Origin: Bolinopsis microptera
Lineage: Eukaryota
DNA: 64,000 bases
Assembly (NCBI RefSeq): GCF_026151205.1
Contig: NC_087073.1
Location: forward strand, 19,292,658-19,356,657
Reading direction: 5' to 3'
Positions 3,226 through 64,000 of the stretch are shown piece by piece. A model generated the notes under the pieces. That model made no database searches. It was not told the origin of the DNA and was given only the letters and a program-made list of their open reading frames with translations. The position numbers and the translations under genes were made by a program. The stretch's first letter is position 1. The number at the start of each line of letters is the position of its first letter.

Positions 3226-3312
3226 GTTTAGGGCCGGGTTAGGGTTAGGGTTGTGGTAAGGGTTATGGTTAGCTTCGGGGTTATGGTTAGGGTTAGGGTT
3301 GGGATTAGGGTT
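3226..3312. repeat. Interstitial telomere-like repeat, degenerate (TTAGGG)n
   Basis: gggttagggttagggttgtggtaagggttatggttag...ggttagggttagggttgggattagggttt read directly from the sequence. Confidence 0.7.
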
Positions 3313-3929: not shown

Positions 3930-5100
3930 CCAGGTTCACACTGCACAGTTACCATGTTCCCGACATTGTCTCTAGGTTCACACTGCACAGTCTACATGTT
4001 CCTGACATTGTCTCTAGGTGCGCACTGCACAGTCTCCATATTCCTGACCTCGTCTCCAGGTGCACACTGAACAGTCTCCATGTTCCTGACATTGTCTCTA
4101 GGTTCACACTGCACAGTCTACATGTTCCTGACATTGTCTCTAGGTGCGCACTGCACAGTCTCCATATTCCTGACCTCGTCTCCAGGTGCACACTGCACAG
4201 TCTCCATGTTCCTGACCTCGTCACCAGGTGATACTGCACAGTCTCCATGTTCCTGATCTCGTCTCCAGTTCACACTGCACAGTCTCCATGTTCCTGACCT
4301 AGTCTCCAAGTGCACACTGCACAGTCTCCATGTTCCTGACCTCGTCTCCAGGTTCACACTGCACAGTCTCCATGTTCCTGACCTCGTCTCCAGGTTCACA
4401 CTGCACAGTCTCCATGTTCTTGACCTCGTCTCCAGGTTCACACTGCACAGTCTCCATGTTTCTGACCTAGTCTCCAAGTGCACACTGCACAGTCTCCATG
4501 TTCCTGACCTCGTCTCCAGGTTCACACTGCACAGTCTCCATGTTTCTGACCTAGTCTCCAAGTGCACACTGCACAGTCTCCATGTTCCTGACCTCGTCTC
4601 CAGGTTCACACTGCACAGTCTCCATGTTCCTGACCTCGTCTCCAGGTTCACACTGCACAGTCTCCATGTTCTTGACCTCGTCTCCAGGTTCACACTGCAC
4701 AGTCTCCATGTTTCTGACCTCGTCTCCAGGTTCACACTGCACAGTCTCCATGTTCCTGACCTCGTCTCCAGGTTCACACTGCACAGTCTCCATGTTCATA
4801 ACCTCGTCTCCAGGTTCACACTGCACAGTCGCCATGTTCCTGACCTCGTCTCCAGGTGCACACTGCACAGTCTCCATGTTCCTGACCTCGTCACCAGGTT
4901 CACAATGCACAGTCTCCATGTTCCTGACCTCGTCTCTAGGTTCACACTTCCAAGTCTCCATGTTTATGACCTCGTCTCTAGGTTCACACTGCACAGTCTC
5001 CATGTTCCTGACCTCGTCTCCAGGTGCACACTGCACAGTCTCCATGTTCCTGACCTCGTCACCAGGTGCACACTGCACAATCTCCATGTTCCTGACCGCG
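3930..5100. repeat. 42-bp minisatellite, about 28 tandem units
   Basis: Unit GGTTCACACTGCACAGTCTCCATGTTCCTGACCTCGTCTCCA with point variants. It lacks stops in several frames on both strands, which produces the artefactual ORFs 3949-4248, 4118-4777, 4582-5139 and 4905-5135. On the minus strand it encodes the 14-aa repeat ETVQCEPGDEVRNM. Confidence 0.9.
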
Positions 5101-9059: not shown

Positions 9060-9290
9060 GGGTATCCTAGGAAGTTTCTTGAACTTTGAACAGGTACCCC
9101 TCCTCATTTAACCCTCGTCCCTCGATTAAGTTTCATATCATTCGGCTGAGTCGACCGAGGAGATTACATAGATCCAATGGATCCTTAGCTACTCCCTGGC
9201 CTAGACTAGGTGACACTGGGATTCGAACCCTGAACCTTCTGCGCAGAAGGCGGATGCTCTAACCAATAGGCCACCTAGCCCCTACTTGCG
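9060..9290 (-). mobile_element. tRNA-derived SINE, copy 1
   Basis: On the minus strand there is a tRNA-like head with B-box GGTTCGAATCC, and the body shares AGCTAAGGATCC...GAGGGTTAAATGAGGAG with the copy at 36440-36740. The head fails a canonical cloverleaf because it contains the perfect 16-nt palindrome CCTTCTGCGCAGAAGG, so it is called a SINE or pseudo-tRNA rather than a tRNA gene. Confidence 0.5.
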
Positions 9291-23404: not shown

Positions 23405-26400
23405 TTACTCCGCAAGTCCAATTTTAACATCACTTGTAGAAATAGTTCCCCCGATGAGACCTTTAGCCGTGTTGAAAAGGTTAAGAGGTGTTGATCCATC
23501 AGTGATGAGGGTAGACTTGAGCCCTAATGCTTCCAACATTTTTACCTGATAATGATATATCACATTGAGGAAGTTATAAGACTGTTACATACTGTTTAGT
23601 GCATACTGAATCAAATTAATAACTCTGCACTTCTCGACGAACTTGCAGAACAGCAGGCCCAACCCTTGAGCTTAAGACGAATAATGTATGACATTTATTC
23701 AGCTATAAGTTACCTGGTTGTCTTTTCCAGAGGTTGCAATAGCAGCAATATTTAATGGTCCCAATTCTTCCACCATACGTTGGAACCTAGTCGACTCTAT
23801 ATCTGCCATCTTCTGTTTCTTGGATATCTCGAGCTCGTTGGTGGACTGAAGGTACTCCAGCTCACTTTTACGGGCTGATGTTATTCTGTGCAGCTCAGCA
23901 CGCTGAAGAATTATACAAGTTAAAAATAGCATTCGCCATATTTACTCCAGTAGCAGGGAGGAGTTGAGTGTGCACTTCGATGTACAGAGTTTTTTGCTGC
24001 TGAATCGGGTTAAATAGGTCATTGGTAACTCAAAAAATCGAGGGCCGCCTGTTGTGTCGCTAGTCCCAACCCTGTGGAGCCACGCCCATATTTCATATCA
24101 GGTGCGTATATGGGAAATATGTATCTCAGCTTCTGAAGGTCTTAGAGACTTAAACTTGAGTTTAAAATGACCGCAATACACATGTTTATGTTGGTACTAT
24201 GAAGGTCATGAAAGCCCAAAATGCTTATTTTTGGAAAAAATTCAGAAAAACCAATTTTCACTTGGGCGCGAGTAAAAAATCTACACTAGAAATTGAGTGA
24301 AAATCGAGTAAGCAGTTCAGTGTCTACCACATTTCTAAACACAGGGTCCTCTGTTAGGTCATTCTTAATCAGAATTGATAAAGTAAGCAAATTTTATTAG
24401 TAGTTTCAACCCTGTGGAGCCACGCCCATATTTCATATTATGTGTGAATATCGGAAATTTGTATCTCAGCTTCTGAAGGTCTTAGAGACTCAAAGGTGGG
24501 CTTAAAATGACCGCAATGTACATGTTTATATTGGCACTATGAGGGTCATGAAGGCCCAGAATGCTTATTTTTTGGAAAAATTCAGTAAAACCGATTTTCA
24601 AGTTTGCGACACTTGGGCATGAGTAAAAATCGACGCTTAGAAGTTAAGTGAAATCGAGTATGAAGTTCAGTGTCTGCAACGTTTCTAAACACAGGATCCT
24701 TTGTAAGGTCATTCTGAATCAGAATTGATAAGGTACAAAAATTCTATGAGTAGTTTCAACCCTAGGGAGCAAAACTCCTAAATTACCCCCAGGCGCAAAT
24801 ATATGACTTTTCTATCTCGGCTTCTGAACGTTGTAGGGGCCTCTCTTTGAGCTCAAACTAACCACGATGGCCACATTTATATACCAACTGTAAAGAAACA
24901 TAGGGTTTATACTTTATAGTGCTTAGTTTTTAAAAACTCATTTAAAAACTGTTTTAACCTTCATGCATCATAAAATAGTAACATCAAACATGTACTTAAT
25001 TATGGTATCTCGGGCTAAAAAAGTCTTATAGACATTTCCAGCACAGTAAAACGTTCAACATGAACACATTCGGATAACATTTATGGAGAAGCACATAGGT
25101 ACCACCTAACTTTAATTTTGGTATAACTGCGAAAATACTCAGTTTCAGAAGCTCCTTCCAGCTATCTTAGGCTGCCATCAGCTCCCTCTCTGGGACTCTC
25201 TCCAGTACTGCTTGGCTATTATGGCTAATCAACTTGAATCCAACCTCATGTAGTAGAATCTACTTCTAGTTACCTTCTGCTAAGTCCATGTCAACTCTAC
25301 CCAGCTACCACCACCAATATGTTATAATTTTAGATCTTTCTAGCAACTTCTGATATGAGTGCTACCTCTTCCTCTATCCAGCTACTATACCACCAGATGG
25401 CAGAAACCACCAATTCCAGCTGTCTCCACCTACTTCGGCTACCTCTATTTAGCTACCACCAAGGTTCCTCCAACTTCTGCTATTTCTAGCAACTTTAGCT
25501 TAGGGTAGTGGGCCTGGGCTACTTCTTGCCCTGTCTAGCAACCATCAGCAACATTTTATTCTGGCGTTTAGAGGTTGCTAGAAACAGCAAATTTCCTCTT
25601 CCTTAATGAGCTAGAAATTGTTGGATGCAGCAGAGGTTATACAGCACTCATATCAGAGGTTGCTAGAAAGATCTAAAATTATAACATATTGGTGGTGGTA
25701 GCTGGGTAGAGTTGACATGGACTTAGCAGAAGGTAACTAGAAGTAGATTCTACTACATGAGGTTGGATTCAAGTTGATTAGCCATAATAGCCAAGCAGTA
25801 CTGGAGAGAGTCCCAGAGAGGGAGCTGATGGCAGCCTAAGATAGCTGGAAGGAGCTTCTGAAACTGAGTATTTTCGCAGTTATACCAAAATTAAAGTTAG
25901 GTGGTACCTATGTGCTTCTCCATAAATGTTATCCGAATGTGTTCATGTTGAACGTTTTACTGTGCTGGAAATGTCTATAAGACTTTTTTAGCCCGAGATA
26001 CCATAATTAAGTACATGTTTGATGTTACTATTTTATGATGCATGAAGGTTAAAACAGTTTTTAAATGAGTTTTTAAAAACTAAGCACTATAGAGTATAGA
26101 CCCTATGTTTCTTTACAGTTGGTATATAAATGTGGCCATCGTAGTTAGTTTGAGCTCAAAGAGAGGCCCCTACAACGTTCAGAAGCCGAGATAGAAAAGT
26201 CATATATTTGCGCCTGGGGGTAATTTAGGAGTTTTGCTCCCTAGGGTTGAAACTACTCATAGAATTTTTGTACCTTATCAATTCTGATTCAGAATGACCT
26301 TACAAAGGATCCTGTGTTTAGAAACGTTGCAGACACTGAACTTCATACTCGATTTCACTTAACTTCTAAGCGTCGATTTTTACTCACGCCCAAGTGTCGC

Positions 26401-29400
26401 AAACTTGAAAATCGGTTTTACTGAATTTTTCCAAAAAATAAGCATTCTGGGCCTTCATGACCCTCATAGTGCCAATATAAACATGTACATTGCGGTCATT
26501 TTAAGCCCACCTTTGAGTCTCTAAGACCTTCAGAAGCTGAGATACAAATTTCCGATATTCACACATAATATGAAATATGGGCGTGGCTCCACAGGGTTGA
26601 AACTACTAATAAAATTTGCTTACTTTATCAATTCTGATTAATAATGACCTAACAGAGGACCCTGTGTTTAGAAATGTGGTAGACACTGAACTGCTTACTC
26701 GATTTTCACTCAATTTCTAGTGTAGATTTTTTACTCGCGCCCAAGTGAAAATTGGTTTTTCTGAATTTTTTCCAAAAATAAGCATTTTGGGCTTTCATGA
26801 CCTTCATAGTACCAACATAAACATGTGTATTGCGGTCATTTTAAACTCAAGTTTAAGTCTCTAAGACCTTCAGAAGCTGAGATACATATTTCCCATATAC
26901 GCACCTGATATGAAATATGGGCGTGGCTCCACAGGGTTGGGACTAGCGACACAACAGGCGGCCCTCGATTTTTTGAGTTACCAATGACCTATTTAACCCG
27001 ATTCAGCAGCAAAAAACTCTGTACATCGAAGTGCACACTCAACTCCTCCCTGCTACTGGAGTAATTCAATTCAAATACATACATCCATTGATTTAAGGGA
27101 TACTTGAAGGATATGTTCCTATATATCCTTTATTTCGATGCTACATATTTGTTGGGTAAAACTGTAAGATAAACAGTTAGGATTTAAACTTACAGCGTTG
27201 ATGTTTTGGGCTTCAGCTGCAAGTTTGGCCTGATCCACCGCAGCTTCGCCCTCTATTTTCATTGACTCAGCCCGGGACTGAGCCTCTGCTATTGCTTGTC
27301 CGGTACTCTCAACGGCGGCTGAGCTGTTTAGAGGAAACCATTATTGTTAGGATAATCATGGTGATACAGTATCAACTATCAATTAGTATTGAAAAGTAGA
27401 TACATTGCTAGTAAATGTAAATGATGGTAATCTTTGTTTCAGCCCTACATTGCTTGAAGTTCAAGTAGTTCCAAGCGAGATTTCTCTTCTTCAGCCTCAT
27501 CACTAAGTTTCTGTCGTTCTAATCTACCCATCGCCTCCTGGTCCAGTCTTTCTGCTTCATGCCTGAAATATGCCTACTATATACCACAACTAAAACCTAG
27601 ACAATAACCTAAAACCAGTATTAGAGTAAGAGAAAAGGTGGTTAAAGGTTTCCCGTATTCATGATAATTTAATAATCTTAACCAATGCACTACACATAGA
27701 GATTTATTATACGATATTCGTATACTTAATCTTAGTCGATGGCTTTGTAGTTTGTATATTTGGGTAGTAGAATGAAGAGTTCGGAGAAGGACTTCGAAGT
27801 GAGGAAAGCTAAGGCATGGGGAGCGTGTCACCAGATGAAGCTTGTATGGAAGTCGGATATGCGTAGAGATCTCAAGATACGACTGTTCCTGGCTACAGTC
27901 GAGTCCATCCTTCTATATGGCTCTGAAACATGGACTGTCAGCCAGACCCTCACAAAACGTATTGATGGATGTTATACGAGAATGCTGAGGATGGCACTTA
28001 ACATTGACTGGAAAGAGCGGCAGACTAACGCCAAGGTGTATGGACACCTCATCAGAGCATCTGATAAGATAGCTGCACGGAGGATGAGACTCGCAGGCCA
28101 TTTAGCCAGACATGAAGAACTATTGAGTCATCAACTTCTCTTCTGGGAACCCCTTCAAGGACATCGTTGAAGGGGAAGACCACACCTCACATTTATTGAC
28201 ATCCTTCGGAAGTACACGGGGCTTGACGACAGCAAGGAGACTAACAAACTCATGATAGACAGATTTGGAAGAAAACTATCTCTGTTCGGACATTGAAGCC
28301 GCCCTAAGTCGAGTAAGTCGATACTTAATCTATACTTTAACCACTTTTTAACGAAAATTGCACTGCTAAGGAATACAGATAAATAACCTGAAGCACCAAC
28401 CTAGCTGTGGCTTCCTGGGAGTTGGTTGTTATCTCAATGGCAAGTTGTACCGACTTCATGAGAGAGTCCCTTGTTCGCTGATCTACCGGCTCTACCGACT
28501 GTATGTCAATATTTGTGATCCTCAGACGGTTTGCAGGGAAGTGGAGGGAGTCATGGCTACCCAGGATGGATTCGTTTATTATTCGTGCAGAATGCTGAAA
28601 ATAACGTGGCGTTACCCTTACGCTTGGGGAAATAGAATATCTCAAAAATTTGAAACTTCACGATCAACTGCCTTGGAGAGATGAAATCCTGCTATTGATA
28701 GATGAGCACGATTCAACAGTTTACGGTATCAAAAAATTTACTTCGCCCTATCAAAATCATTCACCCTATTAAAACCAGAGTGCATTGTTCATACTACTCA
28801 CCTTATGAAAGTCATCAAAAGGTACAGCTGCAACAGCTCCTCTAATCTTGGAAGCTATGGATTTACAAGCGTCTCCGACAAAGTCCGGCACTGAGAACAG
28901 TGATTCCGAGTCACATTTGTAAGTAGGGGAATCACTTGCTGGTAACTCAAATTGCCTGTATGAGGATGAGTACAAAAGATTGTGGAGTACAGATTCGCCG
29001 TTTAGTAATGAGAGTGGTTTGAATAAATGCCATGCGTATTCAATATTATCAATCTATGACATTAATTGTACAACAATCGGGTATTCCAGATCAATTATCA
29101 TATTGAAAAAGTCATTTCACAGATATAATCTATGTTGTATCATTGATCATCCAGTGGGATAGTTGTTTGATTACTTAAAATAATCTGACTCCTACCAATT
29201 GTAACAGAGCTGCAATGAAAGTCTGGCATGATCAGAAGTCTCCACAGTAAATACATCCGTCATAAAGTCTGGTCCGAGTGAGAGGTCGAGGGTCCTGACA
29301 ACATTGGGTCGTTTTGGCTGGCCTCCAGATAAACTGAGTTGCGTGAAATGTTCGTCCGGTCCCAGCATGACTAAGTCAGGTCCAAATATCACCCTGAAAT

Positions 29401-35400: not shown

Positions 35401-38400
35401 CTCCAGCTGATCAATGTACAATGATTGCCTATACATAATTTTTAACGCAGAATTGAGACTCTGAGCCATGACTTCCCTAGTGATTTCTCTTCTACCAATG
35501 AAAGCCTGGGCTACACACGCGTTAACATGACTTGATTTAACAAGCGCGAGAGTTTTCCGGATCCATTCAGCTCCATCATCTCTCACTTCATCAAGCTTAT
35601 AACCCACGTATTTCTCAGATTTATACATCGCACAACCACGGCACCGGTTAAACAAGCAAGTCTTATCAACGTAATGATAAGTAACTGATAAGCGAGTAAC
35701 AACGTATTGAAAAGTGTATTTACTGAACTGAAAAGAATCACAAATTATCAAAACTATCGCTGTTTAGTTCGTATGAGAGTGAACTTTCGAAAACAAAGCA
35801 TGGAAATTCTAAAACAATAGCATTAGCCATGTACACATGAAAAAGACGTATCTCGAGGCGACCCGCCTCGAGATACGTCGTTTTCATGTACTGTTCAGGA
35901 CTAGTGACTACCATCAATCTTAAGATTTCGCACTTGTTTATCTTGGGGCGACTGCGGCTGCAAACCATCACTACTGACTTGTTCATTTCATTCAAACGCT
36001 CAACACAACTCTTCTTCAAAACAATAGCATTATTTCAGATCCCCAGAAATTTAAGTCTTGGGTTACCTGACCAGTATGGATTTATACTTTTATTCACAAA
36101 GTGCTCACTGCTCAAGTGCTAAGTCTCTATAGACGGCAACCAATGAAGTGATTGAGATGTCAGATGACACTCACTTGGAGGTTGAAAGTACAAGCTAATG
36201 CACTTGAAGACTGGTTTAAACCTCATAGAACAGACTAGTATCTTTGTTTAGAAGAAGTTTGATTGTATACTATAAGTGCACATCAACACCTGCAACCAGT
36301 GGTGAAAGAAGAGAAAAAGTTCTGATGTAAATTAATTGGGTACTTAGCTAATTTGAGGTTCGAAGGCCGAAGCTATACTTTTTATCTCAATCTCAACACT
36401 TATTTTACTTCGGACATTCCAACAGCCACATTGTTACACAAGTGTGTAACCAGCCAATTACAGGAAGCCGAAGGATTCAATTATACATTAGGCCAGTGAC
36501 GGTTAAGGTAGTGTGTACCATACTTTCTTCGCCCGAGACTTTGCTGCAATGGGCAGCTCCTCATTTAACCCTCACACCCGATTTCTCGAGTATTTGGCTG
36601 ATTGGACCGGGGGGCTGCATAGACCACTCAGGATCCTTAGCTGAGCGTCGACGACGCTCACCCCACGGCTAGTGACAGAGTCGGGAATCGAACCTGGTAC
36701 CTCAAGCAATACCAGGCGGATTAACCAACTGAGCCACTAAGCCGTAAAATAATAATATATATTATATAATACTTACTAATATAATTATTACTTTTGTTAG
36801 CAAGCATAACACGTATATATGTATATATATTATAATGATATTTGGTGTTCTATAATCTCACCTAGAAACTTTACTCTTGTAGTCGAACACTTGAACAGCA
36901 GAGTTGTGGGGGACCTGATAAGCGATAACTCTCGTCTTATCCCTCGGTTTCGTGGTCACCTCTTTGCTTTCACCACCACGGAGTTTCTCTCTCCCAACCA
37001 GCGGGTTCTGAGCAGCTGCTAGAAGCTTCTCTATCTGCTCCGGCAACTCTTTGGAGTACAGTTCCTCGTCTTGGTTGTTAATGTACGTCTCTCCGATAAC
37101 TGCACGAACCTGGAATGTCGTATATCGTTTAAAAAACATTTTGAAATTTAAATCAAGGGTTAAATGTTTCCCTAAAGTTCACGTCATCGCAAACAGAAAG
37201 ACTGAAAGGTGAAATAGCAGTAGTTCTGAATCAAAATCTCACCTTTCCAGTCTTAACATTTCTAATATAAACACCCTCATTTTCATCCAATGGCATGGCT
37301 TTTCTTCTGGAGACAATCTCCATCTCGACTGTAGGGCAAAAGTCTTGTGGTCCTTTCACCATCCATCTGTCTCCTGGGGTTCTTTGGACATCCTGTAATA
37401 AAAATACCAGTCCTATTGTGTTTATAAATTTATTGATTTTATACTTTACAAATATCTGGGTGTAGTGTTCTATTTTTTTCTCTGATATTTTACAAGACGG
37501 AGTCAATTTCAACATTTCTGTAACTGCCACAATATAGGTTTTATAAATCATAGTCAAAACATGAAGTGTTTGTAAGTTATTTAAATTCTTACGCCATCTG
37601 TGAATGGAAGAATAGCCCTGAGAACAACAGCCTCATCCTCTAGAAGAATACAGATATCCTGCACTTTCCCACTTTCTAACGTTTCGCCTGGATGCAAGAA
37701 AAACTCCTTTTCTCCCTGAAATAAAATTGGTCAAACCTCGTCGGATATAACAACCATTCGATAATTCAACATACTCCACCTAAATTCCGATGCAGAAACT
37801 GCTGTTATCGTCTGAATGATAAGGTTTTAGGAAATATTATACAGATGTTTGATAGGAAATTCCTTACCCTGACGAGTTTCTTGCTTCCAAACTGGTTTTT
37901 ACCATCAGCCCCGATTGGATCTAGAATAATACAGAACTGTCTGTTAGTAAGTATGGTTACTGACACTGATTCTTTTACTTCTTCATACACGTCAGGAATA
38001 AACGACTCAGCATCCTGTAATTTTAGTTATGTATGAATTGTCATCGGCTTTAAGTTTCCAATACATACAGCACAATCAAGGTTGAAATGTACAAATTTGA
38101 TGGTATGCTTATGATTCAGCTATCGATACCATATTGTAATATCTAAGCAAACTACTAAAAGTTTGATTACTTTGATAGTTTACCTTTTCAGTGACCAGCC
38201 ACTCCTCTCCAGCCCTTCTCTTCTTCCTGAATCTATCAGTAAAAGTCTGCTTAGCCACAACATGGAGAGCCAGCTTGTTGTTGAGTTGGTGTGCTGTCAG
38301 AGTGCCAACTATTTTCTCGTGAGGTCCCGGCAGATATGCTCCTGGTTTGCTGACCAACCATACTTCTCCGTACACCCTGCTCTTACCTTCCCTATCCTGT

Positions 38401-45266: not shown

Positions 45267-46672
45267 TCATGAGATATTTATTCCCTTTCTCTTGGCAACA
45301 CACGGATTTTTATATAAATATTGGACTTGTTGCTTCTTCTTTTCGATATAATTTACACCCTCTATTTTTGCTAAAACTATATTTGACACTTCCCAAAAGT
45401 TGCCTGTGTCTACTAAATTATTAGTCTTTTTAAATTCTTCTAGATTAATTTTAAAATCAATAACAGACACTGAATTTCTAACAAAAGATGGCAATTTATT
45501 CCAAAAGCTGATAACACGCTCTGATAAAAAATTATTAGACAAGGTTTTAATATTTCCATCAATATTGTTAGATTTAGTGCTAACAATTTTATCTCCCGAT
45601 CTACTTAAATTGAAAATATCTTTTCCATACTCAACCAATCCATTTACAATTTTGTAGGCTTCAATCAAATCTCCTCTAACCCGTCTCTCTGCGAGTGTTG
45701 TAATCTGTAAGGCATCCAACCTTTCACTGTAAGGAAGTGTTCCAATATCATCAATAAGGCGTGTGAACCTTCTCTGGACATTTTCCAGTTCAATGATAGT
45801 AGCCCAATTCCCATGGCAGGCAGGTACCTTCTTCAGATTTGAAATGGTCGAAACATATTAAAAGTTGTATTAGTAAAGCAAACAGTATGATTGCATGGGT
45901 TACAAGGAATCTCATTATAAGAGAAATTAATGTTATGAGAAATGTTTATAAAACTATAATAAGACCCCACTTGGAGTATTGTGCTCAGTTGTGGTCTCCA
46001 CCTGCAGGTGGAGACCACAACTGACCACAACTGAGCACAATACTCCAAGTGGGGTCTTATTATAGTTTTATAAACATTTCTCATAACATTAATTTCTCTT
46101 ATAATGAGATTCCTTGTAACCCATGCAATCATACTGTTTGCTTTACTAATACAACTTTTAATATGTTTCGACCATTTCAAATCTGAAGAAGTTAAAACTC
46201 CAAGATCTTTCTCTGCTTCAATACATTCAAGTGTAACACCACTAAATACATATTCTTGAAGGGGATTTTCATTAAATGGAACATGCATTATTTTGCATTT
46301 GCTAGGATTAAACTTTAACAGCCACACATTTTGCCAGTTTTGCAAGCTTTCTAACATATTGAAAGTGCTTTCAGTGTCATTGGCATCCATAATAACTTTA
46401 AGATCATCTGCAAACAGTTTTGATATACCATTAATACAATCAGGCAAGTCATTGATAAAAATGACAAACAATAAAGGACCTAAAACAGACCCTTGTGGGA
46501 CGCCTGATAAAACATCACGAAGGTAGGAATATGCTCCACCAACAAATGTCTTAAATCTTCTTCCAGATAAAAAGTCTTTCACAATATCTAAAGTGTTACC
46601 ACTTATACCCAAATTTCTCATTTTTGTAAGTAGTCTATATATTTTAATACTTTCAACACTACTATATAACAA
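45267..46672 (-). mobile_element. LINE ORF2 RT core plus C-terminal domain, from a different family
   Basis: ORF 45833-46672 carries GVPQGSVLGPLLFVIFINDL and KLFADDLKV (FADD). ORF 45267-45719 carries ERRVRGDLIEAYKIVNG...ISFWNKLP, the typical non-LTR C-terminal region. The reading frame is broken by the internal inverted duplication at 45840-46190. Confidence 0.8.
45840..46190. repeat. Inverted duplication (about 175-bp arms centred on CCTGCAGG at about 46006) inside the LINE
   Basis: 45840-46005 is the reverse complement of 46012-46185 (ataagaccccacttggagtattgtgctcagttgtggtctccacctgcagg|tggagaccacaactg...). ORF 45839-46024 on plus encodes the same peptide as the LINE ORF on minus. Confidence 0.8.
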
Positions 46673-46937
46673 ATAATTTGAGGACCCCCAGTGGGAACTA
46701 ATGCCTCGGTAAATGTAACGACCATTACAGGTTGTATGTCAATGTAAATGGTTGTTGCACGATAAAGTTATCTTAAAGACATCCTAAGGACTATCAGACA
46801 TCGGTTTTTAAAGCAGTTTACTCCCATCTATCACCTAAAGATTATCAGACATCACTTATCGTTATCCTCCGGAGTGCTACAAAGGTACTGTAATCATTAA
46901 CTAAATTTCGAACAGTAGCATCTTTTTGTGATAAACT

Positions 46938-51109: not shown

Positions 51110-51560
51110 TATAGATCTTTTGAAAGGAATGCCTGACTTGAACCCCCTCATCCATCACTCATTCAGTGTTGCCTGTTGGATATGGAGGAAATCTACACCA
51201 CTGATATTGTAAAGGCACTCTTCAGTACACATAAAATAGAGCACGGTGAATAATATAGATGAGTTACTGCTATCTTCTCAATGCAATTTTGAATACATGT
51301 CAGGAACACCTGACTTAAACCCCCTCATCCAAAACTCATTCAGTGTTGCCTGTTGGATATGGAGGAAATCTACACCACAAAGTGGAATATTGTAAAGGCA
51401 CTCTTCAGTACACATAAAATAGAGCACGGTGAATAATATAGATTAGTTGCTGCTATCTTCTTAACATGATTTTGAATTTATAAATAGTAGTAGAGTAAAT
51501 GTCAGGAATGCCTGACTTAAACCCCCTCATCCATCACTAATTTCGAATAAATGTATAGAT
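51110..51560. repeat. About 190-bp tandem repeat, about 2.3 units
   Basis: Repeated ggaa(t/c)(g/a)cctgacttaaaccccctcatcca...gtaaaggcactcttcagtacacataaaatagagcacggtgaataatatagat. Confidence 0.7.
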
Positions 51561-53697: not shown

Positions 53698-54590
53698 ATT
53701 ACAAATGTTTTACTGAAACTGACTTCACTGGCTTTTTGAACGTTTCAACTGAAAACTCAGATTTATTGTCACTAACAGTTCGTAGCTTCCGCGAGTTCAG
53801 TGATCCAACCGTTATAGACCTCATACTCTTCAGTAATGTAGGTAGAATAAACTGACAATCTTTGAAGAGTATCCATTTCCTCCATCGTTTACTTGTACTT
53901 GTATAAAGTAAAAACACAGTACCAGCAAAATGGCAGTTGTAATGTAGCGATAAAATAGAGATAAGAGCTAGATTATCAACACATAACAAAAACTGTAAAA
54001 CTGTATCATAATATTATTATGCTTTTAACATCATCTGTTGTGATATACATGACAAAGGGTTGGAAACGTACAGTAACCTTACTACATGTATATTGCAATT
54101 ACACAATATTATGTGAACGACTCCTAACCCCTTATAGGCTCTATAAGTATTGAATAATGATAACTGCAGGGTTTCAAAATGTACAAGGCATCATATCAAA
54201 GATTGCATATGCCCGAAAGAAGGACAAATCCAATCTCTGGATGTATGGAAAGCTGTCAACCTTCCAGAAAAGGACTGTTCAAAGGAACACTTAAATCCCT
54301 CCGACAGGTAATTATTATAAATAATAATTTAGTCTTCATTATGTCAAATCACCTACTATAATGAAGAACTAAAATTGTTGTATTAACCAAGTTTAATGTG
54401 ACTCAATTTTGGTGGAACTTTAGAATTTGGACGTTATATCTATCATGTTCATCTTAAATCTCATATTATATACTCAATATTCAATTAAACAGACAAAGAT
54501 AACCTCTCTAGGCCCTCTGGTGGTGACGTATAAGTGCTTTCTCAGTACTTTCTCTCGCTTTTGGACAAATCCAGTGAGTTAACTTTTTAT

Positions 54591-54765
54591 CAGTGGTCGA
54601 CCGGGGGCAGGATTCTGACCGGGGCCGGGGAGCCCCAATATGGCCGGGGCTGACCACTGAGAATTGGCCGGGGCCGGGGTTTACCCCCGGCGAATTGCCA
54701 ATTTTTGGCCGGGGCCGGGAAGGGCGGGGGGTTGTGATTTTGGCCGGGGCACCGGGCGACCACTG
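54591..54765. mobile_element. hAT-type MITE (175 bp) with perfect 8-bp TSD CTTTTTAT
   Basis: TSD at 54583-54590 and 54766-54773. TIRs CAGTGGTCGACCGG and the reverse complement of CCGGGCGACCACTG (14/15 match; the CAGTG start is typical of hAT). The interior is GC-rich with GGCCGGGGCCGGG repeats. This accounts for ORF 54593-54787. Confidence 0.8.
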
Positions 54766-55051
54766 CTTTTTATGTCACGATTTTTAAAACTTTATTCATA
54801 AGTTTATGAAACATCAAAACTTTGCATGCTCTGCATTATGTAAAGTCAATCATGCACTAGAGCACAGTTCACTGTAATATGCTAGAGTGATTTATACTCA
54901 ATAGCTATGTGAAAAGTGGCTCAAGGAGGGGAGACCGACGTAAACAATTTTGAATTGGTAGAAGTTAAGTTTAGGCTTTAATGAAAAACTATTTAAAGAA
55001 TATCATTCTTTTACCACAGACATAAGACTTTGCCGTAGGGTATACAAAAAT

Positions 55052-55517
55052 GTGACCATTCATCAATTTTTAGAGTGCTGTATCTGTACCCGAATAGAAA
55101 TAAAGGATTTTAATGAAACAGTTTTCTTCCGCTCTGAAAGTGAACGAATGACAAAACAGTCTAGAAAATTCCTCGCCCTGCTGCAGAAGATCAATCCTGG
55201 GTTGTGCTCACCAAATCAAACCTCTTTTTTGTGTATTCAGTGTCTTAACTATGTAAAAGACAACTATAACAGGGTGAGTGGTTTCCTCCTGTTTTACTAA
55301 CATTTAAAAACATTATTATTCAAAGGTAAATAGACAGCGAGTAGTAATTTTCAATCCATTTCTATCGGATTTGCAAACTTTTAAAATGATATAACACTTG
55401 TACGATCTCAAACTTATGTGATATGATACTGTTGATATAAACGTGGTAAGTAATAAAGTATTTGCAGGTGTACAGTGCTGTTTCTGAAATTGACGAATCC
55501 TCTTGTGATGAAGATTG
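55052..55517 (+). CDS. Candidate small two-exon gene encoding a Cys-rich (CxxC...CxxC) peptide of about 90 aa, function unknown
   Basis: Exon 55052-about 55276 (MTIHQFLECCICTR...FLCIQCLNYVKDNYNR) ends at the donor GTGAGT. A candidate acceptor tttgcag at 55466 gives VYSAVSEIDESSCDED and a stop. No homology recognised. Confidence 0.25.
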
Positions 55518-56732
55518 AAGAAGCTATTGCCATCCAAGTGGAAAAAGTCCCGCCTTTGTCACCCTCCTCGAATAGAACTTAGAAAATGTGGAGACTTTCT
55601 TCATTTAGTTCCCAATCAAGTGGACCAGATGTTGATTTGTTTGAAATGGACTGAGACTTGTGTTTCATATGCCAGGTTGAACAGGTTTGTGTGACACTTT
55701 TGCTCGCAAATATAATTATTATGTAACATATTATCTCGATTTAATTTTAAGAGTATCAGAGGTTATTCTTCTTTAACAATACGAATTTCCCTAGATAAGA
55801 CGTTAGAAACGAAAAAGGATAGTCTGATTCAAGGAAAAGATAAAAGTTTCTTCGTCGATTTCGCAACATACTATCTGTGGACATCTACAGAAATCGTCAG
55901 GATCTGTGCAACATCGATGTTAATCCTGATTCGCACATGACCAAGTGCCCTGTTCTTAACCCTGAGAGTCTCGGAAAATATCTCTATAGCAAGCTAGGTA
56001 GATATCACAAAACATGTCGTTTGAGGTACAGCAACTCGAGGGTGAAACAATTGAAGGGTAAATTATCTGAAGCTGTAAGTTTAAAACCTGTCTCTAAGGC
56101 AGGTTTTTAAATGGAAAGACACGTGTCCACGCACGACAACACCAATGCTGCATTAATGAGTGCAGGTATTGACGCTGTACGGACCTTTTAACTGGAGCAG
56201 GAGAATGTTTTACCAGAACTGTACCTCGTGTCTGACCCGAAGCTTAAGTACAATGACTATGTGACGTCTAATTTATCTGAGAACGCTGCAAACTCCAGCA
56301 ATGTTTAATCTGATCACATCAGTTTTCAGAAAGACAATGTCGGTAAGACGAGTTTGTTTCGACATCTAATCTTGCCGCAACAATAGATGCGGATAGAGAT
56401 GATAACACTTTAACAAAGACAGCACTCATAAAGGAGATTAGAAAAGAAATCTTTCAATGTAGAAACGAATTCTATCAGCTATGTTCGATTTACTGATCGG
56501 TGGCATCTGTAGAAATATAGTGTTTATGTGGATTAATCTGTTAAAGCAGGGCTATTGTATCATTTTAACATTAACTTTGCATAGTGATGATACTTTTATT
56601 GTGTCTCTTGTGATTATCTATTTCTAAGTTTCTACAGTGTTACGGTACCACGAGGTTTCTGGCACAGTGACGCGCTTTTGAGCAAATATCGTGCTAGATA
56701 AGTCACGCGCCGCGAGGGCTACTTGAGAGCGT

Positions 56733-59700
56733 TTTGCCGGATTTTTGCCGGATTTTTGCCGGATTCTTGAATAACGGAAAATTGTATTGATAAATGTTCT
56801 TTAAACTCTTCAAATAGTTAGAGCACTATAATACGGTCAATTTCAGGGAGTATAAAAAAATTTCTTCGTCTGTGAGTGGAGATACAAGGTCAAACACAAG
56901 AAAATATCTTCATTTGGCCAGAATTTTTGCCGGATTCTTGAATAACGGAAAATTGTATTGATAAATGTTCTTTAAACTCTTCAAATAGTTAGAGCACTAT
57001 AATACGGTCAATTTCAGGGAGTATAAAAAAATTTCTTCGTCTGTGAGTGGAGATACAAGGTCAAACACAAGAAAATATCTTCATTTGGCCAGAATTTTTG
57101 CCGGATTCTTGAATAACGGAAAATTGTATTGATAAATGTTCTTTAAACTCTTCAAATAGTTAGAGCACTATAATACGGTCAATTTCAGGGAGTATAAAAA
57201 AATTTCTTCGTCTGTGAGTGGAGATACAAGGTCAAACACAAGAAAATATCTTCATTTGGCCAGAATTTTTGCCGGATTCTTGAATAACGGAAAATTGTAT
57301 TGATAAATGTTCTTTAAACTCTTCAAATAGTTAGAGCACTATAATACGGTCAATTTCAGGGAGTATAAAAAAATTTCTTCGTCTGTGAGTGGAGATACAA
57401 GGTCAAACACAAGAAAATATCTTCATTTGGCCAGAATTTTTGCCGGATTCTTGAATAACGGAAAATTGTATTGATAAATGTTCTTTAAACTCTTCAAATA
57501 GTTAGAGCACTATAATACGGTCAATTTCAGGGAGTATAAAAAAATTTCTTCGTCTGTGAGTGGAGATACAAGGTCAAACACAAGAAAATATCTTCATTTG
57601 GCCAGAATTTTTGCCGGATTCTTGAATAACGGAAAATTGTATTGATAAATGTTCTTTAAACTCTTCAAATAGTTAGAGCACTATAATACGGTCAATTTCA
57701 GGGAGTATAAAAAAATTTCTTCGTCTGTGAGTGGAGATACAAGGTCAAACACAAGATAATATCTTCATTTGGCCAGAATTTTTGCCGGATTCTTGAATAA
57801 CGGAAAATTGTATTGATAAATGTCCTTTAAACTCTTCAAATAGTTAGAGCACTATAATACGGTCAATTTCAGGGAGTATAAAAAAATTTCTTCGTCTGTG
57901 AGTGGAGATACAAGGTCAAACACAAGAAAATATCTTCATTTGGCCAGAATTTTTGCCGGATTCTTGAAGAACGGAAAATTGTATTGATAAATGTTCTTTA
58001 AACTCTTCAAATAGTTAGAACATTATAATACAGTCAATTTCAGGGAGTATAAAAAAATTTCTTCGTCTGTGAGTGGAGATACAAGGTCAAACACAAGAAA
58101 ATATCTTCATTTGGCCAGAATTTTTGCCGGATTCTTGAATAACGGAAAATTGTATTGATAAATGTCCTTTAAACTCTTCAAATAGTTAGAGCACTATAAT
58201 ACGGTCAATTTCAGGGAGTATAAAAAAATTTCTTCGTCTGTGAGTGGAGATACAAGGTCAAACACAAGAAAATATCTTCATTTGGCCAGAATTTTTGCCG
58301 GATTCTTGAATAACGGAAAATTGTATTGATAAATGTCCTTTAAACTCTTCAAATAGTTAGAGCACTATAATACAGTCAATTTCAGGGAGTATAAAAAAAT
58401 TTCTTCGTCTGTGAGTGGAGATACAAGGTCAAACACAAGAAAATATCTTCATTTGGCCAGAATTTTTGCCGGATTCTTGAATAACGGAAAATTGTATTGA
58501 TAAATGTTCTTTAAACTCTTCAAATAGTTAGAGCACTATAATACGGTCAATTTCAGGGAGTATAAAAAATTTCTTCGTCTGTGAGTGGAGATACAAGGTC
58601 AAACACAAGAAAATATCTTCATTTGGCCAGAATTTTTGCCGGATTCTTGAATAACGGAAAATTGTATTGATAAATGTTCTTTAAACTCTTCAAATAGTTA
58701 GAGCACTATAATACGGTCAATTTCAGGGAGTATAAAAAAATTTCTTCGTCTGTGAGTGGAGATACAAGGTCAAACACAAGAAAATATCTTCATTTGGCCA
58801 GAATTTTTGCCGGATTCTTGAATAACGGAAAATTGTATTGATAAATGTTCTTTAAACTCTTCAAATAGTTAGAGCACTATAATACGGTCAATTTCAGGGA
58901 GTATAAAAAAATTTCTTCGTCTGTGAGTGGAGATACAAGGTCAAACACAAGAAAATATCTTCATTTGGCCAGAATTTTTGCCGGATTCTTGAATAACGGA
59001 AAATTGTATTGATAAATGTTCTTTAAACTCTTCAAATAGTTAGAGCACTATAATACGGTCAATTTCAGGGAGTATAAAAAAATTTCTTCGTCTGTGAGTG
59101 GAGATACAAGGTCAAACACAAGAAAATATCTTCATTTGGCCAGAATTTTTGCCGGATTCTTGAATAACGGAAAATTGTATTGATAAATGTTCTTTAAACT
59201 CTTCAAATAGTTAGAGCACTATAATACGGTCAATTTCAGGGAGTATAAAAAAATTTCTTCGTCTGTGAGTGGAGATACAAGGTCAAACACAAGAAAATAT
59301 CTTCATTTGGCCAGAATTTTTGCCGGATTCTTGAATAACGGAAAATTGTATTGATAAATGTTCTTTAAACTCTTCAAATAGTTAGAGCACTATAATACGG
59401 TCAATTTCAGGGAGTATAAAAAAATTTCTTCGTCTGTGAGTGGAGATACAAGGTCAAACACAAGAAAATATCTTCATTTGGCCAGAATTTTTGCCGGATT
59501 CTTGAATAACGGAAAATTGTATTGATAAATGTTCTTTAAACTCTTCAAATAGTTAGAGCACTATAATACGGTCAATTTCAGGGAGTATAAAAAAATTTCT
59601 TCGTCTGTGAGTGGAGATACAAGGTCAAACACAAGAAAATATCTTCATTTGGCCAGAATTTTTGCCGGATTCTTGAATAACGGAAAATTGTATTGATAAA

Positions 59701-62700
59701 TGTTCTTTAAACTCTTCAAATAGTTAGAGCACTATAATACGGTCAATTTCAGGGAGTATAAAAAAATTTCTTCGTCTGTGAGTGGAGATACAAGGTCAAA
59801 CACAAGAAAATATCTTCATTTGGCCAGAATTTTTGCCGGATTCTTGAATAACGGAAAATTGTATTGATAAATGTTCTTTAAACTCTTCAAATAGTTAGAG
59901 CACTATAATACGGTCAATTTCAGGGAGTATAAAAAAATTTCTTCGTCTGTGAGTGGAGATACAAGGTCAAACACAAGAAAATATCTTCATTTGGCCAGAA
60001 TTTTTGCCGGATTCTTGAATAACGGAAAATTGTATTGATAAATGTTCTTTAAACTCTTCAAATAGTTAGAGCACTATAATACGGTCAATTTCAGGGAGTA
60101 TAAAAAAATTTCTTCGTCTGTGAGTGGAGATACAAGGTCAAACACAAGAAAATATCTTCATTTGGCCAGAATTTTTGCCGGATTCTTGAATAACGGAAAA
60201 TTGTATTGATAAATGTTCTTTAAACTCTTCAAATAGTTAGAGCACTATAATACGGTCAATTTCAGGGAGTATAAAAAAATTTCTTCGTCTGTGAGTGGAG
60301 ATACAAGGTCAAACACAAGAAAATATCTTCATTTGGCCAGAATTTTTGCCGGATTCTTGAATAACGGAAAATTGTATTGATAAATGTTCTTTAAACTCTT
60401 CAAATAGTTAGAGCACTATAATACGGTCAATTTCAGGGAGTATAAAAAAATTTCTTCGTCTGTGAGTGGAGATACAAGGTCAAACACAAGAAAATATCTT
60501 CATTTGGCCAGAATTTTTGCCGGATTCTTGAATAACGGAAAATTGTATTGATAAATGTTCTTTAAACTCTTCAAATAGTTAGAGCACTATAATACGGTCA
60601 ATTTCAGGGAGTATAAAAAAATTTCTTCGTCTGTGAGTGGAGATACAAGGTCAAACACAAGAAAATATCTTCATTTGGCCAGAATTTTTGCCGGATTCTT
60701 GAATAACGGAAAATTGTATTGATAAATGTTCTTTAAACTCTTCAAATAGTTAGAGCACTATAATACGGTCAATTTCAGGGAGTATAAAAAAATTTCTTCG
60801 TCTGTGAGTGGAGATACAAGGTCAAACACAAGAAAATATCTTCATTTGGCCAGAATTTTTGCCGGATTCTTGAATAACGGAAAATTGTATTGATAAATGT
60901 CTTTAAACTCTTCAAATAGTTAGAGCACTATAATACGGTCAATTTCAGGGAGTATAAAAAAATTTCTTCGTCTGTGAGTGGAGATACAAGGTCAAACACA
61001 AGAAAATATCTTCATTTGGCCAGAATTTTTGCCGGATTCTTGAATAACGGAAAATTGTATTGATAAATGTTCTTTAAACTCTTCAAATAGTTAGAGCACT
61101 ATAATACGGTCAATTTCAGGGAGTATAAAAAAATTTCTTCGTCTGTGAGTGGAGATACAAGGTCAAACACAAGAAAATATCTTCATTTGGCCAGAATTTT
61201 TGCCGGATTCTTGAATAACGGAAAATTGTATTGATAAATGTTCTTTAAACTCTTCAAATAGTTAGAGCACTATAATACGGTCAATTTCAGGGAGTATAAA
61301 AAAATTTCTTCGTCTGTGAGTGGAGATACAAGGTCAAACACAAGAAAATATCTTCATTTGGCCAGAATTTTTGCCGGATTCTTGAATAACGGAAAATTGT
61401 ATTGATAAATGTTCTTTAAACTCTTCAAATAGTTAGAGCACTATAATACGGTCAATTTCAGGGAGTATAAAAAAATTTCTTCGTCTGTGAGTGGAGATAC
61501 AAGGTCAAACACAAGAAAATATCTTCATTTGGCCAGAATTTTTGCCGGATTCTTGAATAACGGAAAATTGTATTGATAAATGTTCTTTAAACTCTTCAAA
61601 TAGTTAGAGCACTATAATACGGTCAATTTCAGGGAGTATAAAAAAATTTCTTCGTCTGTGAGTGGAGATACAAGGTCAAACACAAGAAAATATCTTCATT
61701 TGGCCAGAATTTTTGCCGGATTCTTGAATAACGGAAAATTGTATTGATAAATGTTCTTTAAACTCTTCAAATAGTTAGAGCACTATAATACGGTCAATTT
61801 CAGGGAGTATAAAAAAATTTCTTCGTCTGTGAGTGGAGATACAAGGTCAAACACAAGAAAATATCTTCATTTGGCCAGAATTTTTGCCGGATTCTTGAAT
61901 AACGGAAAATTGTATTGATAAATGTTCTTTAAACTCTTCAAATAGTTAGAGCACTATAATACGGTCAATTTCAGGGAGTATAAAAAAATTTCTTCGTCTG
62001 TGAGTGGAGATACAAGGTCAAACACAAGAAAATATCTTCATTTGGCCAGAATTTTTGCCGGATTCTTGAATAACGGAAAATTGTATTGATAAATGTTCTT
62101 TAAACTCTTCAAATAGTTAGAGCACTATAATACGGTCAATTTCAGGGAGTATAAAAAAATTTCTTCGTCTGTGAGTGGAGATACAAGGTCAAACACAAGA
62201 AAATATCTTCATTTGGCCAGAATTTTTGCCGGATTCTTGAATAACGGAAAATTGTATTGATAAATGTTCTTTAAACTCTTCAAATAGTTAGAGCACTATA
62301 ATACGGTCAATTTCAGGGAGTATAAAAAAATTTCTTCGTCTGTGAGTGGAGATACAAGGTCAAACACAAGAAAATATCTTCATTTGGCCAGAATTTTTGC
62401 CGGATTCTTGAATAACGGAAAATTGTATTGATAAATGTTCTTTAAACTCTTCAAATAGTTAGAGCACTATAATACGGTCAATTTCAGGGAGTATAAAAAA
62501 ATTTCTTCGTCTGTGAGTGGAGATACAAGGTCAAACACAAGAAAATATCTTCATTTGGCCAGAATTTTTGCCGGATTCTTGAATAACGGAAAATTGTATT
62601 GATAAATGTTCTTTAAACTCTTCAAATAGTTAGAGCACTATAATACGGTCAATTTCAGGGAGTATAAAAAAATTTCTTCGTCTGTGAGTGGAGATACAAG

Positions 62701-63082
62701 GTCAAACACAAGAAAATATCTTCATTTGGCCAGAATTTTTGCCGGATTCTTGAATAACGGAAAATTGTATTGATAAATGTTCTTTAAACTCTTCAAATAG
62801 TTAGAGCACTATAATACGGTCAATTTCAGGGAGTATAAAAAAATTTCTTCGTCTGTGAGTGGAGATACAAGGTCAAACACAAGAAAATATCTTCATTTGG
62901 CCAGAATTTTTGCCGGATTCTTGAATAACGGAAAATTGTATTGATAAATGTTCTTTAAACTCTTCAAATAGTTAGAGCACTATAATACGGTCAATTTCAG
63001 GGAGTATAAAAAAATTTCTTCGTCTGTGAGTGGAGATACAAGGTCAAACACAAGAAAATATCTTCATTTGGCCAGAATTTTT
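56733..63082 (+). repeat. 171-bp satellite, about 37 highly homogeneous tandem units
   Basis: The period is measured directly, with GAATTTTTGCC at 56921, 57092 and 57263. Units differ by only scattered SNPs (for example gttct/gtcct and acggtc/acagtc). The array starts with a triplicated tttttgccggat and ends abruptly at ggccagaatttttt|agactt. Confidence 0.95.
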
Positions 63083-63889
63083 TAGACTTAAAAATTTAAA
63101 TTAATTTAAAACTAAATTTTCAAGCCACAAATTTTATTGCTGAAGCAGGAACCTACTGTGTAAATTTAATAAGTCTAACATGGTAATAGAGAGATGATAT
63201 AAAGTAGGACTTTCTGAACCGATCGTAGCTCGGTCGTGGGGATGAACATACTATGTAACATAATCTTCCAGGGTCTAATCAAGATGGAAGTTTGGGATCA
63301 TCTAATAACTCAGCAGGATCCATCCGCAGAGGACTTGGTATCGTACACCCCACTATACTGTCGAAGTCGGAAAAACCGGAACCCACGTAGACCTACAATG
63401 ATAATTTTCTGTGATCAGTAACTTCACAGATTACTATTTGGATTAAACTAGATTTAAAAGAAGTTAGACGATTGCTCATTTAACCAATTGGCAAAATAAA
63501 CGTTTTACAACTTCACATCAACATGAACATGAAAATGTTTCCAAGATTCAAAAAACATTGAATTCACTTTGAATAAAGACAAAAACCGTTCGGACTTACT
63601 TACTTCGGTGCAAATTGTGACAGTAAGTTCGAACACTGCGAATCTGTAAGCAGACCGAGTCTTTGTTAAGAGTTTGACAGTGAATTATTTGTCCTGCTAA
63701 ACAGATTCTGGCAGTGAGCTGGTTAAAGGGAGGTCACGTGTCAGAAACGCTGGCCAATTACAGACTATTACGTGGCAGTGCAGAGTGTCACACGACATAT
63801 GCATGTGCCAGTGTAGATGCAGATGGAGGAGCACGTGACTATAACGTGGTCTCTCATGCACATAGTGCTTCAAGTAAATTAGCTCCAGC

Positions 63890-64000
63890 TTTTTTATACT
63901 CCCTGAAATTGACCGTATTATAGTGCTCTAACTATCTGAAGAGTTTAAAGAAAATTTATCAATACAATTTTCCGTTATTCAAGAATCCGGCAAAAATTCT
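63890..64000 (-). repeat. Start of a second array of the same 171-bp satellite in inverted orientation, running off the window edge
   Basis: 63891-64000 is the reverse complement of the unit (tttttatactccctgaaattgaccgtattatagtgctctaactat...caagaatccggcaaaaattct). It is separated from array 1 by an about 810-bp unique spacer. Confidence 0.9.

Follow-up and report, generated by a model that had tools for sequence, protein, structure and literature searches.

What is the long run of near-identical 171-bp repeats that closes the analysed stretch of Bolinopsis microptera DNA (hereafter the window, 64,000 nt of contig NC_087073.1), and how did copies of the same unit come to lie there in both orientations? 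The reading that we favour, at a probability of roughly 0.65, is that of a species-specific, non-coding young satellite array, amplified in place within a part of a ctenophore chromosome that is rich in retrotransposons. Against it we weigh a centromeric role, carriage by a mobile element, an assembly artefact and an array of small RNA genes. The coordinates of the features discussed are collected in Table 1.

Table 1. Features at and around the 171-bp array, in window coordinates
Feature	Position	Strand	Description
Left flank	56690..56731		GC-rich and CpG-rich (gtcacgcgccgcgagggctacttgagagcg); adjoins the array
11-bp motif TTTTGCCGGAT	56732..56764	+	Three tandem copies; Tandem Repeats Finder row 56732-56769, period 11, 3.5 copies
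Satellite array	56752..63082	+	37 units of 171 bp, 29 identical; 32% GC; non-coding
Variant block, units 6-11	57613..58637	+	Sole variant units besides unit 25
Unique spacer	63083..63889		807 bp; occurs once in the window and does not resemble the unit
ACGT-core cluster	63736..63847		Four cores: GTCACGTG, TTACGTGG, CACGTGAC, TAACGTGG
Reverse copy of the unit	63890..64000	-	111 nt (0.65 unit); ends at the window edge

Uniformity of the array and its left junction

Including its leading microrepeat, the array occupies 56732/56733-63082 on the plus strand with a period of 171 bp, and cutting it at the GCCGGATT anchor delimited 37 head-to-tail units, of which 29 are identical. Tandem Repeats Finder places it at 56752-63082, with period 171, 37.0 copies, 99% matches and a score of 12585. 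Two of the 37 units measure 170 bp, in each case through a 1-bp deletion in or beside a homopolymer run, and divergence from the consensus within the plus array is only about 0.14%. A previous reading, made from the sequence only, had described a homogeneous satellite in plus orientation, of nucleosome-scale period and ending at 63082, and our measurements bear it out on each of these points; the low divergence, which it had taken as a sign of active homogenisation, fits recent amplification or homogenisation. Higher-order repeat structure, which the same reading had suggested looking for, was not found: Tandem Repeats Finder gives a period of 171 only, and the variants, which make up one local block, show no multimer periodicity.

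Within that block, 41T>C is common to units 7, 9 and 10 and 78G>A to units 8 and 10, while unit 8 carries four substitutions; the variant in unit 25 is a 1-bp deletion. Neighbouring variant units are thus clustered and share substitutions, as local duplication predicts, and units 6-11 look like an older core with runs of identical, recently copied units on both sides.

Both ends of the plus array lie in the same unit phase, at a T-run, and on the right the array stops at a unit boundary (...AGAATTTTT). We describe its boundaries as sharp because degenerate monomers, sought in the flanks of the array, were absent from them. The region around the left boundary (56640-56735) has a GC fraction of 0.52 and a CpG observed/expected ratio of 1.56, and the CGCG-rich motif previously pointed out at 56690-56730 is indeed there; the alignment of this flank with the unit is no better than that of shuffled sequences. 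The flank includes a GC-rich near-palindrome (CGCGCCGCG), followed by an 11-bp microrepeat and then by the array, which begins at 56732/56733 with (TTTTGCCGGAT) x3.5. The same 11-bp motif forms each unit-to-unit junction, where it occurs once. Since TTTTGCCGGAT stands in triplicate exactly where the array begins on the left and also makes up the junction between units, we read the array as seeded in place, with the microrepeat as the likely seed of the duplication.

The most likely course of events would then be as follows. A segment of about 171 bp bounded by a short direct repeat (the T-run/TTTTGCCGGAT) would have been duplicated, by slipped-strand mispairing or by unequal exchange, a seeding step that we infer from one junction. 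Repeated unequal sister-chromatid exchange or gene conversion would afterwards have expanded and homogenised the array in place, and such growth would leave a small older core, here units 6-11, embedded between long stretches of identical units. Neither an orthologous empty site nor a single-copy progenitor, which would prove origin in place, was found. As a junction in which the microrepeat equals the unit boundary, the left end offers a neat, textbook-style example of possible array seeding.

The reverse-oriented copy and the spacer

Beyond the spacer, the satellite does restart in reverse orientation at about 63890, as the sequence-only reading had claimed, but what it called a second array amounts to 111 nt inside the window. 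Over these 111 nt the copy is 98% complementary to the unit, and it carries two substitutions that all 37 plus-strand units lack; on its inner side the copy ends within the unit, at an A7 run (...GGGAGTATAAAAAA). Two private substitutions in 111 nt, compared with a divergence of about 0.14% within the plus array, indicate that the reverse copy is no fold-back assembly artefact and that homogenisation of the plus array did not include it. Probably it is a separate, independently evolving copy or array, and its junction in a homopolymer run is what would be expected of a microhomology-mediated rearrangement.

The locus is not a true dyad. The symmetry previously attributed to it fails because the two copies do not meet the spacer at the same position of the unit, and because the spacer itself lacks symmetry. 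A single inversion giving rise to both orientations was considered and rejected, as the breakpoint phases differ: at its outer end the plus array begins at another position of the unit than that of the break in the reverse copy, and this mismatch excludes a simple one-step inversion.

Long-read assemblers are known to fail at repeat arrays by creating inverted junctions, and we asked whether the length of the array, its uniformity or the inverted junction might derive from repeats that were collapsed or polished too far, or else from a chimeric join. The base identity of 29 of the 37 units, together with the restriction of indels to homopolymer runs or their immediate vicinity, would agree with such an origin, and the extreme uniformity of the units could be partly inflated by assembly polishing. 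Nevertheless, 807 bp of unique sequence and the private substitutions of the inverted copy are unlike fold-back chimeras, and blanket consensus polishing would hardly have left the shared variants of units 6-11 standing as a coherent block. We consider an artefact quite improbable.

The spacer is unique, as had been stated, although it measures 807 bp (63083-63889) instead of 810. It matches no protein or RNA family and contains no significant internal palindrome, with arms of at most 28 nt at about 70% identity only. It had also been called E-box-rich, and the quoted CACGTG, TACGTG and AACGTG motifs are present: two CACGTG and two other ACGTG cores lie within 112 bp, where local GC reaches 48%, and there is a CCAAT-like GGCCAATT at about 63755. 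Four cores in 112 bp make this the densest ACGT cluster of the window, but its significance does not withstand scan correction (P ~0.10-0.24); when the 109 ACGT sites of the window were placed at random, at least four fell within such a span in 10-24% of simulations. Over the whole window CACGTG is over-represented (15 found versus 6.4 expected). A second CACGTG pair, 12 bp apart, occurs at 31963/31975.

Unit content, neighbourhood and relatives

The unit is AT-rich (32% GC versus 37% for the whole window) and non-coding: each of the six frames is interrupted by stops, and the longest ORF has 29 aa. A coding repeat (171 bp being 57 codons) was rejected because of these stops. Searches of the array yielded no Rfam match at E<=1 and no tRNA, and the unit shows neither an unusual fold (ssDNA hairpin and dyad z-scores of +1.0 and -0.3) nor A-tract phasing, there being no 10-11-bp autocorrelation. 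Judged by its sequence, the unit has no detectable sequence-encoded product or binding-site function, and any putative heterochromatin or centromere role of the array would be epigenetic.

Every unit holds a TATA-like box (GTATAAAAAAA), a possible donor (ACAAG|GTCAAAC) and an Sm-like AAUUUUUG motif, and trans-splicing of a spliced leader is known from ctenophores, whose genomes each contain hundreds of leader loci (PMC8527503). That the units represent small RNA genes (spliced-leader RNA, snRNA or 5S-like) is still extremely improbable: 151 of 500 shuffles align with the Hormiphora leader as well as the unit does, the conserved AATTTGAG|GT end is missing and AATTTGAG occurs nowhere in the unit, and there is neither an Rfam match at E<=1 nor a fold signal. 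A genuine leader-like sequence of ctenophore type is found elsewhere in the window (46640-46682), and it is unrelated to the unit.

The array lies in a TE-rich, gene-poor neighbourhood of LINE fragments, in which RVT_1 and Exo_endo_phos ORFs occur from 11 to 54 kb. At a distance of 50 kb from the array there is a GPCR gene that seems intact; its named relatives are all from Mnemiopsis leidyi, and its closest matches are on ENA contigs of ctenophore-like character. Derivation from a LINE 3' tail was rejected, given that there is no plus-strand RT at 50.3-56.7 kb and that the unit is unlike any TE of the window.

Besides the array and the reverse copy, the window contains no further copies of the unit. 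Related ctenophore DNA totalling about 127 kb, from loci with GPCR paralogues (L001 and L004-L008) at which synteny ends beyond ~6 kb, contains no homologue of the unit, the flanks or the spacer. DNA searches with the unit retrieved two matches from JGI metagenome contigs, corresponding to a chance 21-mer inside a bacterial ORF, and 0 from IMG/VR viral contigs. The six-frame translation of the unit had no match among 5.8 billion proteins, and the same collection gave none for the stop-to-stop ORFs of at least 40 aa from both flanks. A literature search with three 20-22-mers of the unit returned no paper, and no described ctenophore satellite family was found in the literature. The bacterial ORF with the chance 21-mer resembles, by eye, a dihydrolipoyl dehydrogenase.

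Carriage by a mobile element would make the array a set of internal tandem repeats of a non-autonomous transposon, for instance of the Helitron/Helentron type by which satellite-like arrays are dispersed in oysters, and the opposite-strand copies two insertions. Such cargo would suit the TE-rich surroundings and the occurrence of two copies in opposite orientation with different inner junctions. We judge it improbable, as neither flank is repeated in the window and there is no transposase or Rep/helicase ORF nearby. Terminal inverted repeats bracketing the array were also sought, and none join the left flank and the spacer, which share no such sequence longer than 11 nt; six-frame searches with the flanks were empty, revealing no relatives in protein space. 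Moreover, element-borne arrays of this kind are generally much shorter than 37 copies. In favour of cargo, the near-palindrome and microrepeat that precede the array recall the element-borne arrays described in Crassostrea (PMC7492417).

Centromeric readings and comparison with known systems

The sequence-only reading had linked the unit to the classic centromeric alpha satellite, a connection based on the number 171 alone. Primate alpha satellite does share with it a 171-bp monomer and a high AT content, but the likeness goes no further. The best local alignment of the unit with an alpha-satellite consensus is a 10-nt match that 68 of 300 shuffles equal in score, so similarity does not exceed that of shuffled sequences; the CENP-B box core (TTCGNNNNANNCGGG) is found on neither strand of the unit, higher-order repeats are absent, and the host is a ctenophore, not a primate, which rules out primate alpha satellite.

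A centromeric or pericentromeric satellite need not be related to that of primates, and the array could be a putative CenH3-bound 171-bp repeat of this ctenophore, with blocks in opposite orientation. The monomer is nucleosome-sized and AT-rich (32% versus 37% GC), the array is highly homogenised, the surroundings are TE-rich and gene-poor, and some centromeres show a strand switch between blocks. The one ctenophore genome paper found to have looked for centromeric repeats, that on Hormiphora, could identify none (PMC8527503); as ctenophore centromere DNA is undescribed in that work, nothing contradicts a centromeric role. We nonetheless consider it unlikely. The visible array spans 6.3 kb only, with no relation to alpha satellite, no CENP-B box, no higher-order repeat and no dyad or non-B DNA signal; no copy appears in the ~127 kb of related ctenophore DNA or in the collections searched, and 50 kb away there is a GPCR gene that seems intact. 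Likewise, a monomer of ~170 bp is just as characteristic of arrays outside centromeres (PMC4675708). Very improbable is a more elaborate version, in which this would be the first centromere-associated ctenophore satellite, its opposite-strand blocks converging on a GC-rich CACGTG/CCAAT spacer that acts as a promoter transcribing into the arrays; if true, the spacer promoter would serve, for example, small-RNA or heterochromatin maintenance.

As it stands, the array is an ordinary lineage-specific satellite and an unremarkable feature of the genome. In published work on other animals (PMC4675708), ~170 bp is the commonest monomer size for dispersed euchromatic satellite-like arrays. Next to nothing has been described of satellites or centromeres in ctenophores, so the monomer can readily serve as a probe in FISH, k-mer counting or CenH3 profiling, and could help to locate heterochromatin or centromeres in this early-branching animal lineage. 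Misleading annotation is also avoided by setting aside the unsupported readings '171 bp = alpha satellite' and 'E-box-rich'.

Among known systems, the arrangement of two opposite-strand copies around a unique spacer is like that of inverted duplications produced by replication template switching or microhomology-mediated repair, and so is the position of both junctions in homopolymer runs of T or A (TTTTTTAGACT at 63078, TTTTTTATACT at 63890); unlike in these, a simple one-step inversion is excluded here by the breakpoint phases. With the Helentron/HINE-borne arrays of the Pacific oyster (PMC7492417), the locus shares an abrupt start preceded by a unique flank and a short microrepeat, the presence of both orientations and a TE-rich region, whereas it differs from them in that repeated flanks, terminal structures and a Rep/helicase gene were not detected, and in the length and near-uniformity of the array. 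In organisation the array resembles the ~170-bp satellites of other animals: although the host here is a ctenophore and there is no sequence relationship, the dispersed euchromatic arrays of Tribolium castaneum (PMC4675708) and Crassostrea gigas (PMC8268682) are likewise head-to-tail and non-coding, with an AT-rich, nucleosome-sized monomer, very high within-array identity and sharp edges, and are likewise located among transposable elements.

Anatomy of the satellite array

Tandem Repeats Finder reported a dominant plus-strand array of period 171 (37.0 copies, 99% matches, score 12585), and cutting it at the GCCGGATT anchor yielded 37 units. A sequence-only reading had described about 37 near-identical plus-strand units ending at 63082; this observation is real and well located. 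Base-for-base identity extends to 29 of the 37 units, whereas six carry 1–4 substitutions and two, at 170 bp, have each lost one base (from the A-run in one unit and at a TT doublet in the other), for an average divergence from the consensus of ~0.14%. The variants are confined to units 6–11 and 25, with units 1–5, 12–24, and 26–37 identical, and neighbouring units have variants in common (41T>C in units 7, 9, and 10; 78G>A in units 8 and 10). The array contains no higher-order repeat, a structure that the same reading had proposed looking for.

An 11-bp repeat, TTTTGCCGGAT, runs straight into the array (3.5 copies by Tandem Repeats Finder). This junction motif occurs three times in tandem exactly at the array start and once between each two units, and the array ends in the same unit phase as it starts, in the T-run of the motif; this is the footprint expected of the duplication of a segment bounded by direct repeats, followed by amplification. 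The layout of the units also fits such a history: long identical runs lie on either side of a small, older group whose members have variants in common. Most likely, the array is a lineage-specific satellite that originated and grew at this site. From its anatomy we infer that slippage or unequal exchange would first have duplicated a segment of ~171 bp with a short direct repeat at its ends, and that gene conversion or more rounds of unequal sister-chromatid exchange would then have amplified the array. The unit has no related sequence elsewhere within the window from which it could have originated. That the array is instead transposon cargo, of the Helentron type (PMC7492417), is quite unlikely, as the locus shows no repeated flanks or termini; likewise, no inverted repeats bracket the array. 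The left flank, the sequence adjoining the array start, does hold the CGCG-rich motif noticed before (CpG observed/expected 1.56 over 56640–56735), with no partner for it elsewhere in the window. The CpG ratio for the whole window is 0.71.

The spacer and the reverse copy

The array is followed by a unique spacer, as previously noticed, although of 807 rather than 810 bp, and then by the unit as reverse complement. Of the satellite said to restart reversed at ~63890, a reverse copy (98%) is confirmed, whereas the second array is represented within the window by 0.65 unit; its existence beyond the spacer is plausible. The dyad symmetry proposed for the locus does not hold, because the two orientations adjoin the spacer at different points of the unit: at its boundary for the plus array (...GGCCAGAATTTTT/TAGAC), and within it for the reverse copy, which breaks at the A7 run (...GGGAGTATAAAAAA/GCTGG). 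Nor is there any meaningful palindrome within the spacer, or any degenerate monomer in either flank. Each of the two inner junctions falls in a T/A homopolymer run (TTTTTTAGACT at 63078, TTTTTTATACT at 63890), as would fit microhomology-mediated joining. Derivation of both orientations from one array by a single inversion is ruled out: the plus array would then have its outer start at the unit position where the reverse copy breaks, and it does not. Two substitutions in the reverse copy are absent from all 37 plus-strand units. Given these and its different breakpoint, the reverse copy would be a separate copy or array, joined via microhomology in homopolymer runs. An assembly artefact is very unlikely, in view of the unique sequence of the spacer, the substitutions private to the reverse copy and the survival of the block of variant units.

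The spacer had also been called E-box-rich. The quoted motifs are present, and the four ACGT cores at 63736–63847 are the only case of four within 140 bp among the 109 ACGT sites of the window; however, when 109 sites were placed at random on 64 kb, such a cluster arose in 10% (115-bp spans) to 24% (170-bp spans) of simulations. CACGTG is over-represented window-wide (15 sites versus 6.4 ± 2.8 expected from 100 dinucleotide-preserving shuffles, none reaching 15), with a closer pair at 31963/31975. Next to the reverse copy, 190 bp of locally GC-rich sequence (48%) also contain a CCAAT-like GGCCAATT, for which reason a promoter is conceivable here, although the statistics give the region no special standing.

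Surrounding sequences

Features of the window, by position
Position	Strand	Feature	Details
3236–3312		Degenerate interstitial telomere-like repeat	(GGGTTA) x12.8, 69% matches; just downstream of GPCR gene
3930–5097		42-bp tandem repeat	27.9 copies, 91% matches; encodes 14-aa repeat, the GPCR C-terminal tail
4551–7403	-	LDLa-domain GPCR, 950 aa, intronless	ORF and domain
9208–9280	-	Rfam tRNA call	31.5 bits, gathering score 29
21581–21750		28-bp tandem repeat	x6.1, 96%; unrelated to 171-bp unit
26236–26939		340-bp tandem repeat	x2.0, 83%; unrelated to 171-bp unit
36310–36400	+	AATTTGAG/GTTCGAAGGCCGAAGC...	AAATTAATT upstream
46640–46682	+	Leader-like sequence	TTTTAATACTTTCAACACTACTATATAACAAATAATTTGAG
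51125–51461		183-bp tandem repeat	x1.9, 91%; unrelated to 171-bp unit
54590–54770		G-rich element, ~180 bp	Inverted ends CAGTGGTCGACCGG ... CCGGGCGACCACTG
55052–55300	+	Cys-rich ORF	Just left of array
55877–56110	+	Cys-rich ORF	Just left of array
56732–56769		11-bp junction motif	x3.5
56752–63082	+	171-bp array	37 units
63083–63889		Spacer	807 bp
63890–64000	-	Reverse copy	111 nt

The window is rich in LINE debris, with ORFs bearing RVT_1 and Exo_endo_phos domains between 11 and 54 kb, together with an ORF1 that contains a 2OG-Fe(II) oxygenase domain and matches GDSL weakly, below the cutoff. Named relatives of the GPCR are all from the ctenophore Mnemiopsis leidyi (~45% identity), and its best matches (62–81%) are on long, high-coverage ENA contigs; there, in a related ctenophore assembly, paralogues up to 81% identical form tandem gene arrays. 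The tRNA call barely exceeds its threshold and ARAGORN found no tRNA anywhere in the window, this site included; the call may represent a pseudogene or the head of a SINE derived from a tRNA. The G-rich element, full of GGCCGGGG motifs and with near-perfect inverted ends, looks like a MITE. The two Cys-rich ORFs (CxxC...CxxC and C...HxxC patterns) terminate at GT-like donors, have no Pfam match or protein relatives, and may be exons of an unannotated zinc-finger or transposable-element gene.

The leader-like sequence closely matches the trans-spliced leader of Hormiphora californensis (PMC8527503), including the conserved AATTTGAG end; it is followed by GACCCCC, not a GT donor. The ORF1 of a plus-strand LINE starts ~260 bp downstream of it (46938), and the sequence resembles a spliced leader that was captured when a trans-spliced LINE mRNA, bearing it at the 5' end, was retrotransposed. 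Together with the relatives of the GPCR, the leader-like sequence identifies the host as a ctenophore. At 36 kb, a GT comes directly after AATTTGAG, as at no other AATTTGAG of the window, and a motif upstream is also found in the ctenophore leader; this site may represent a true but variant spliced-leader RNA gene.

Affinities of the unit

A coding repeat (171 = 57 codons) was rejected, with stops in all six frames and a longest ORF of 29 aa. The unit has a TATA-like box, AG/GT, and AAUUUUUG, and an array of RNA genes is extremely improbable after the tests it failed: Rfam gave nothing at E ≤ 1 across 55–64 kb and nothing at gathering threshold in the array, 151 of 500 shuffles aligned equally well to the ctenophore leader, the unit lacks AATTTGAG, and its fold is not unusual (ssDNA z-scores +1.0 and -0.3). 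No tRNA was found in the array, nor AA/TT phasing at 10–11 bp in the unit.

A 21-mer scan of JGI metagenome contigs with the unit gave two chance matches, both inside one bacterial ORF that by eye resembles a dihydrolipoyl dehydrogenase. There was no unit match in IMG/VR, and a literature search found no paper containing its 20–22-mers. ENA ctenophore contigs carry called ORFs down to 38 aa, and therefore six-frame translations of the unit and both flanks were searched against 5.8 billion proteins, with no match; likewise, ~127 kb of related ctenophore DNA around the GPCR paralogues held no homologue of unit, spacer or left flank, these negatives being of limited power given the short unit ORFs and the small DNA sample.

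A centromeric or pericentromeric satellite is unlikely: AT-richness, monomer size and the transposon-rich setting are compatible with it, and the literature does not contradict it (13% of the Hormiphora genome is tandem repeats, none identifiable as centromeric; PMC8527503), but the number 171 is the sole positive evidence, and such sizes are typical of non-centromeric arrays too (PMC4675708). The unit is a candidate heterochromatin or centromere probe, of some practical value in Ctenophora, where such sequences are undescribed. There is little support for the combined interpretation as an alpha-like centromeric satellite with a dyad locus and an E-box spacer. The period had been matched to that of classic alpha satellite; yet the best alignment of the unit to the primate consensus is a 10-mer, equalled by 68 of 300 shuffles, and the unit has no CENP-B box core.
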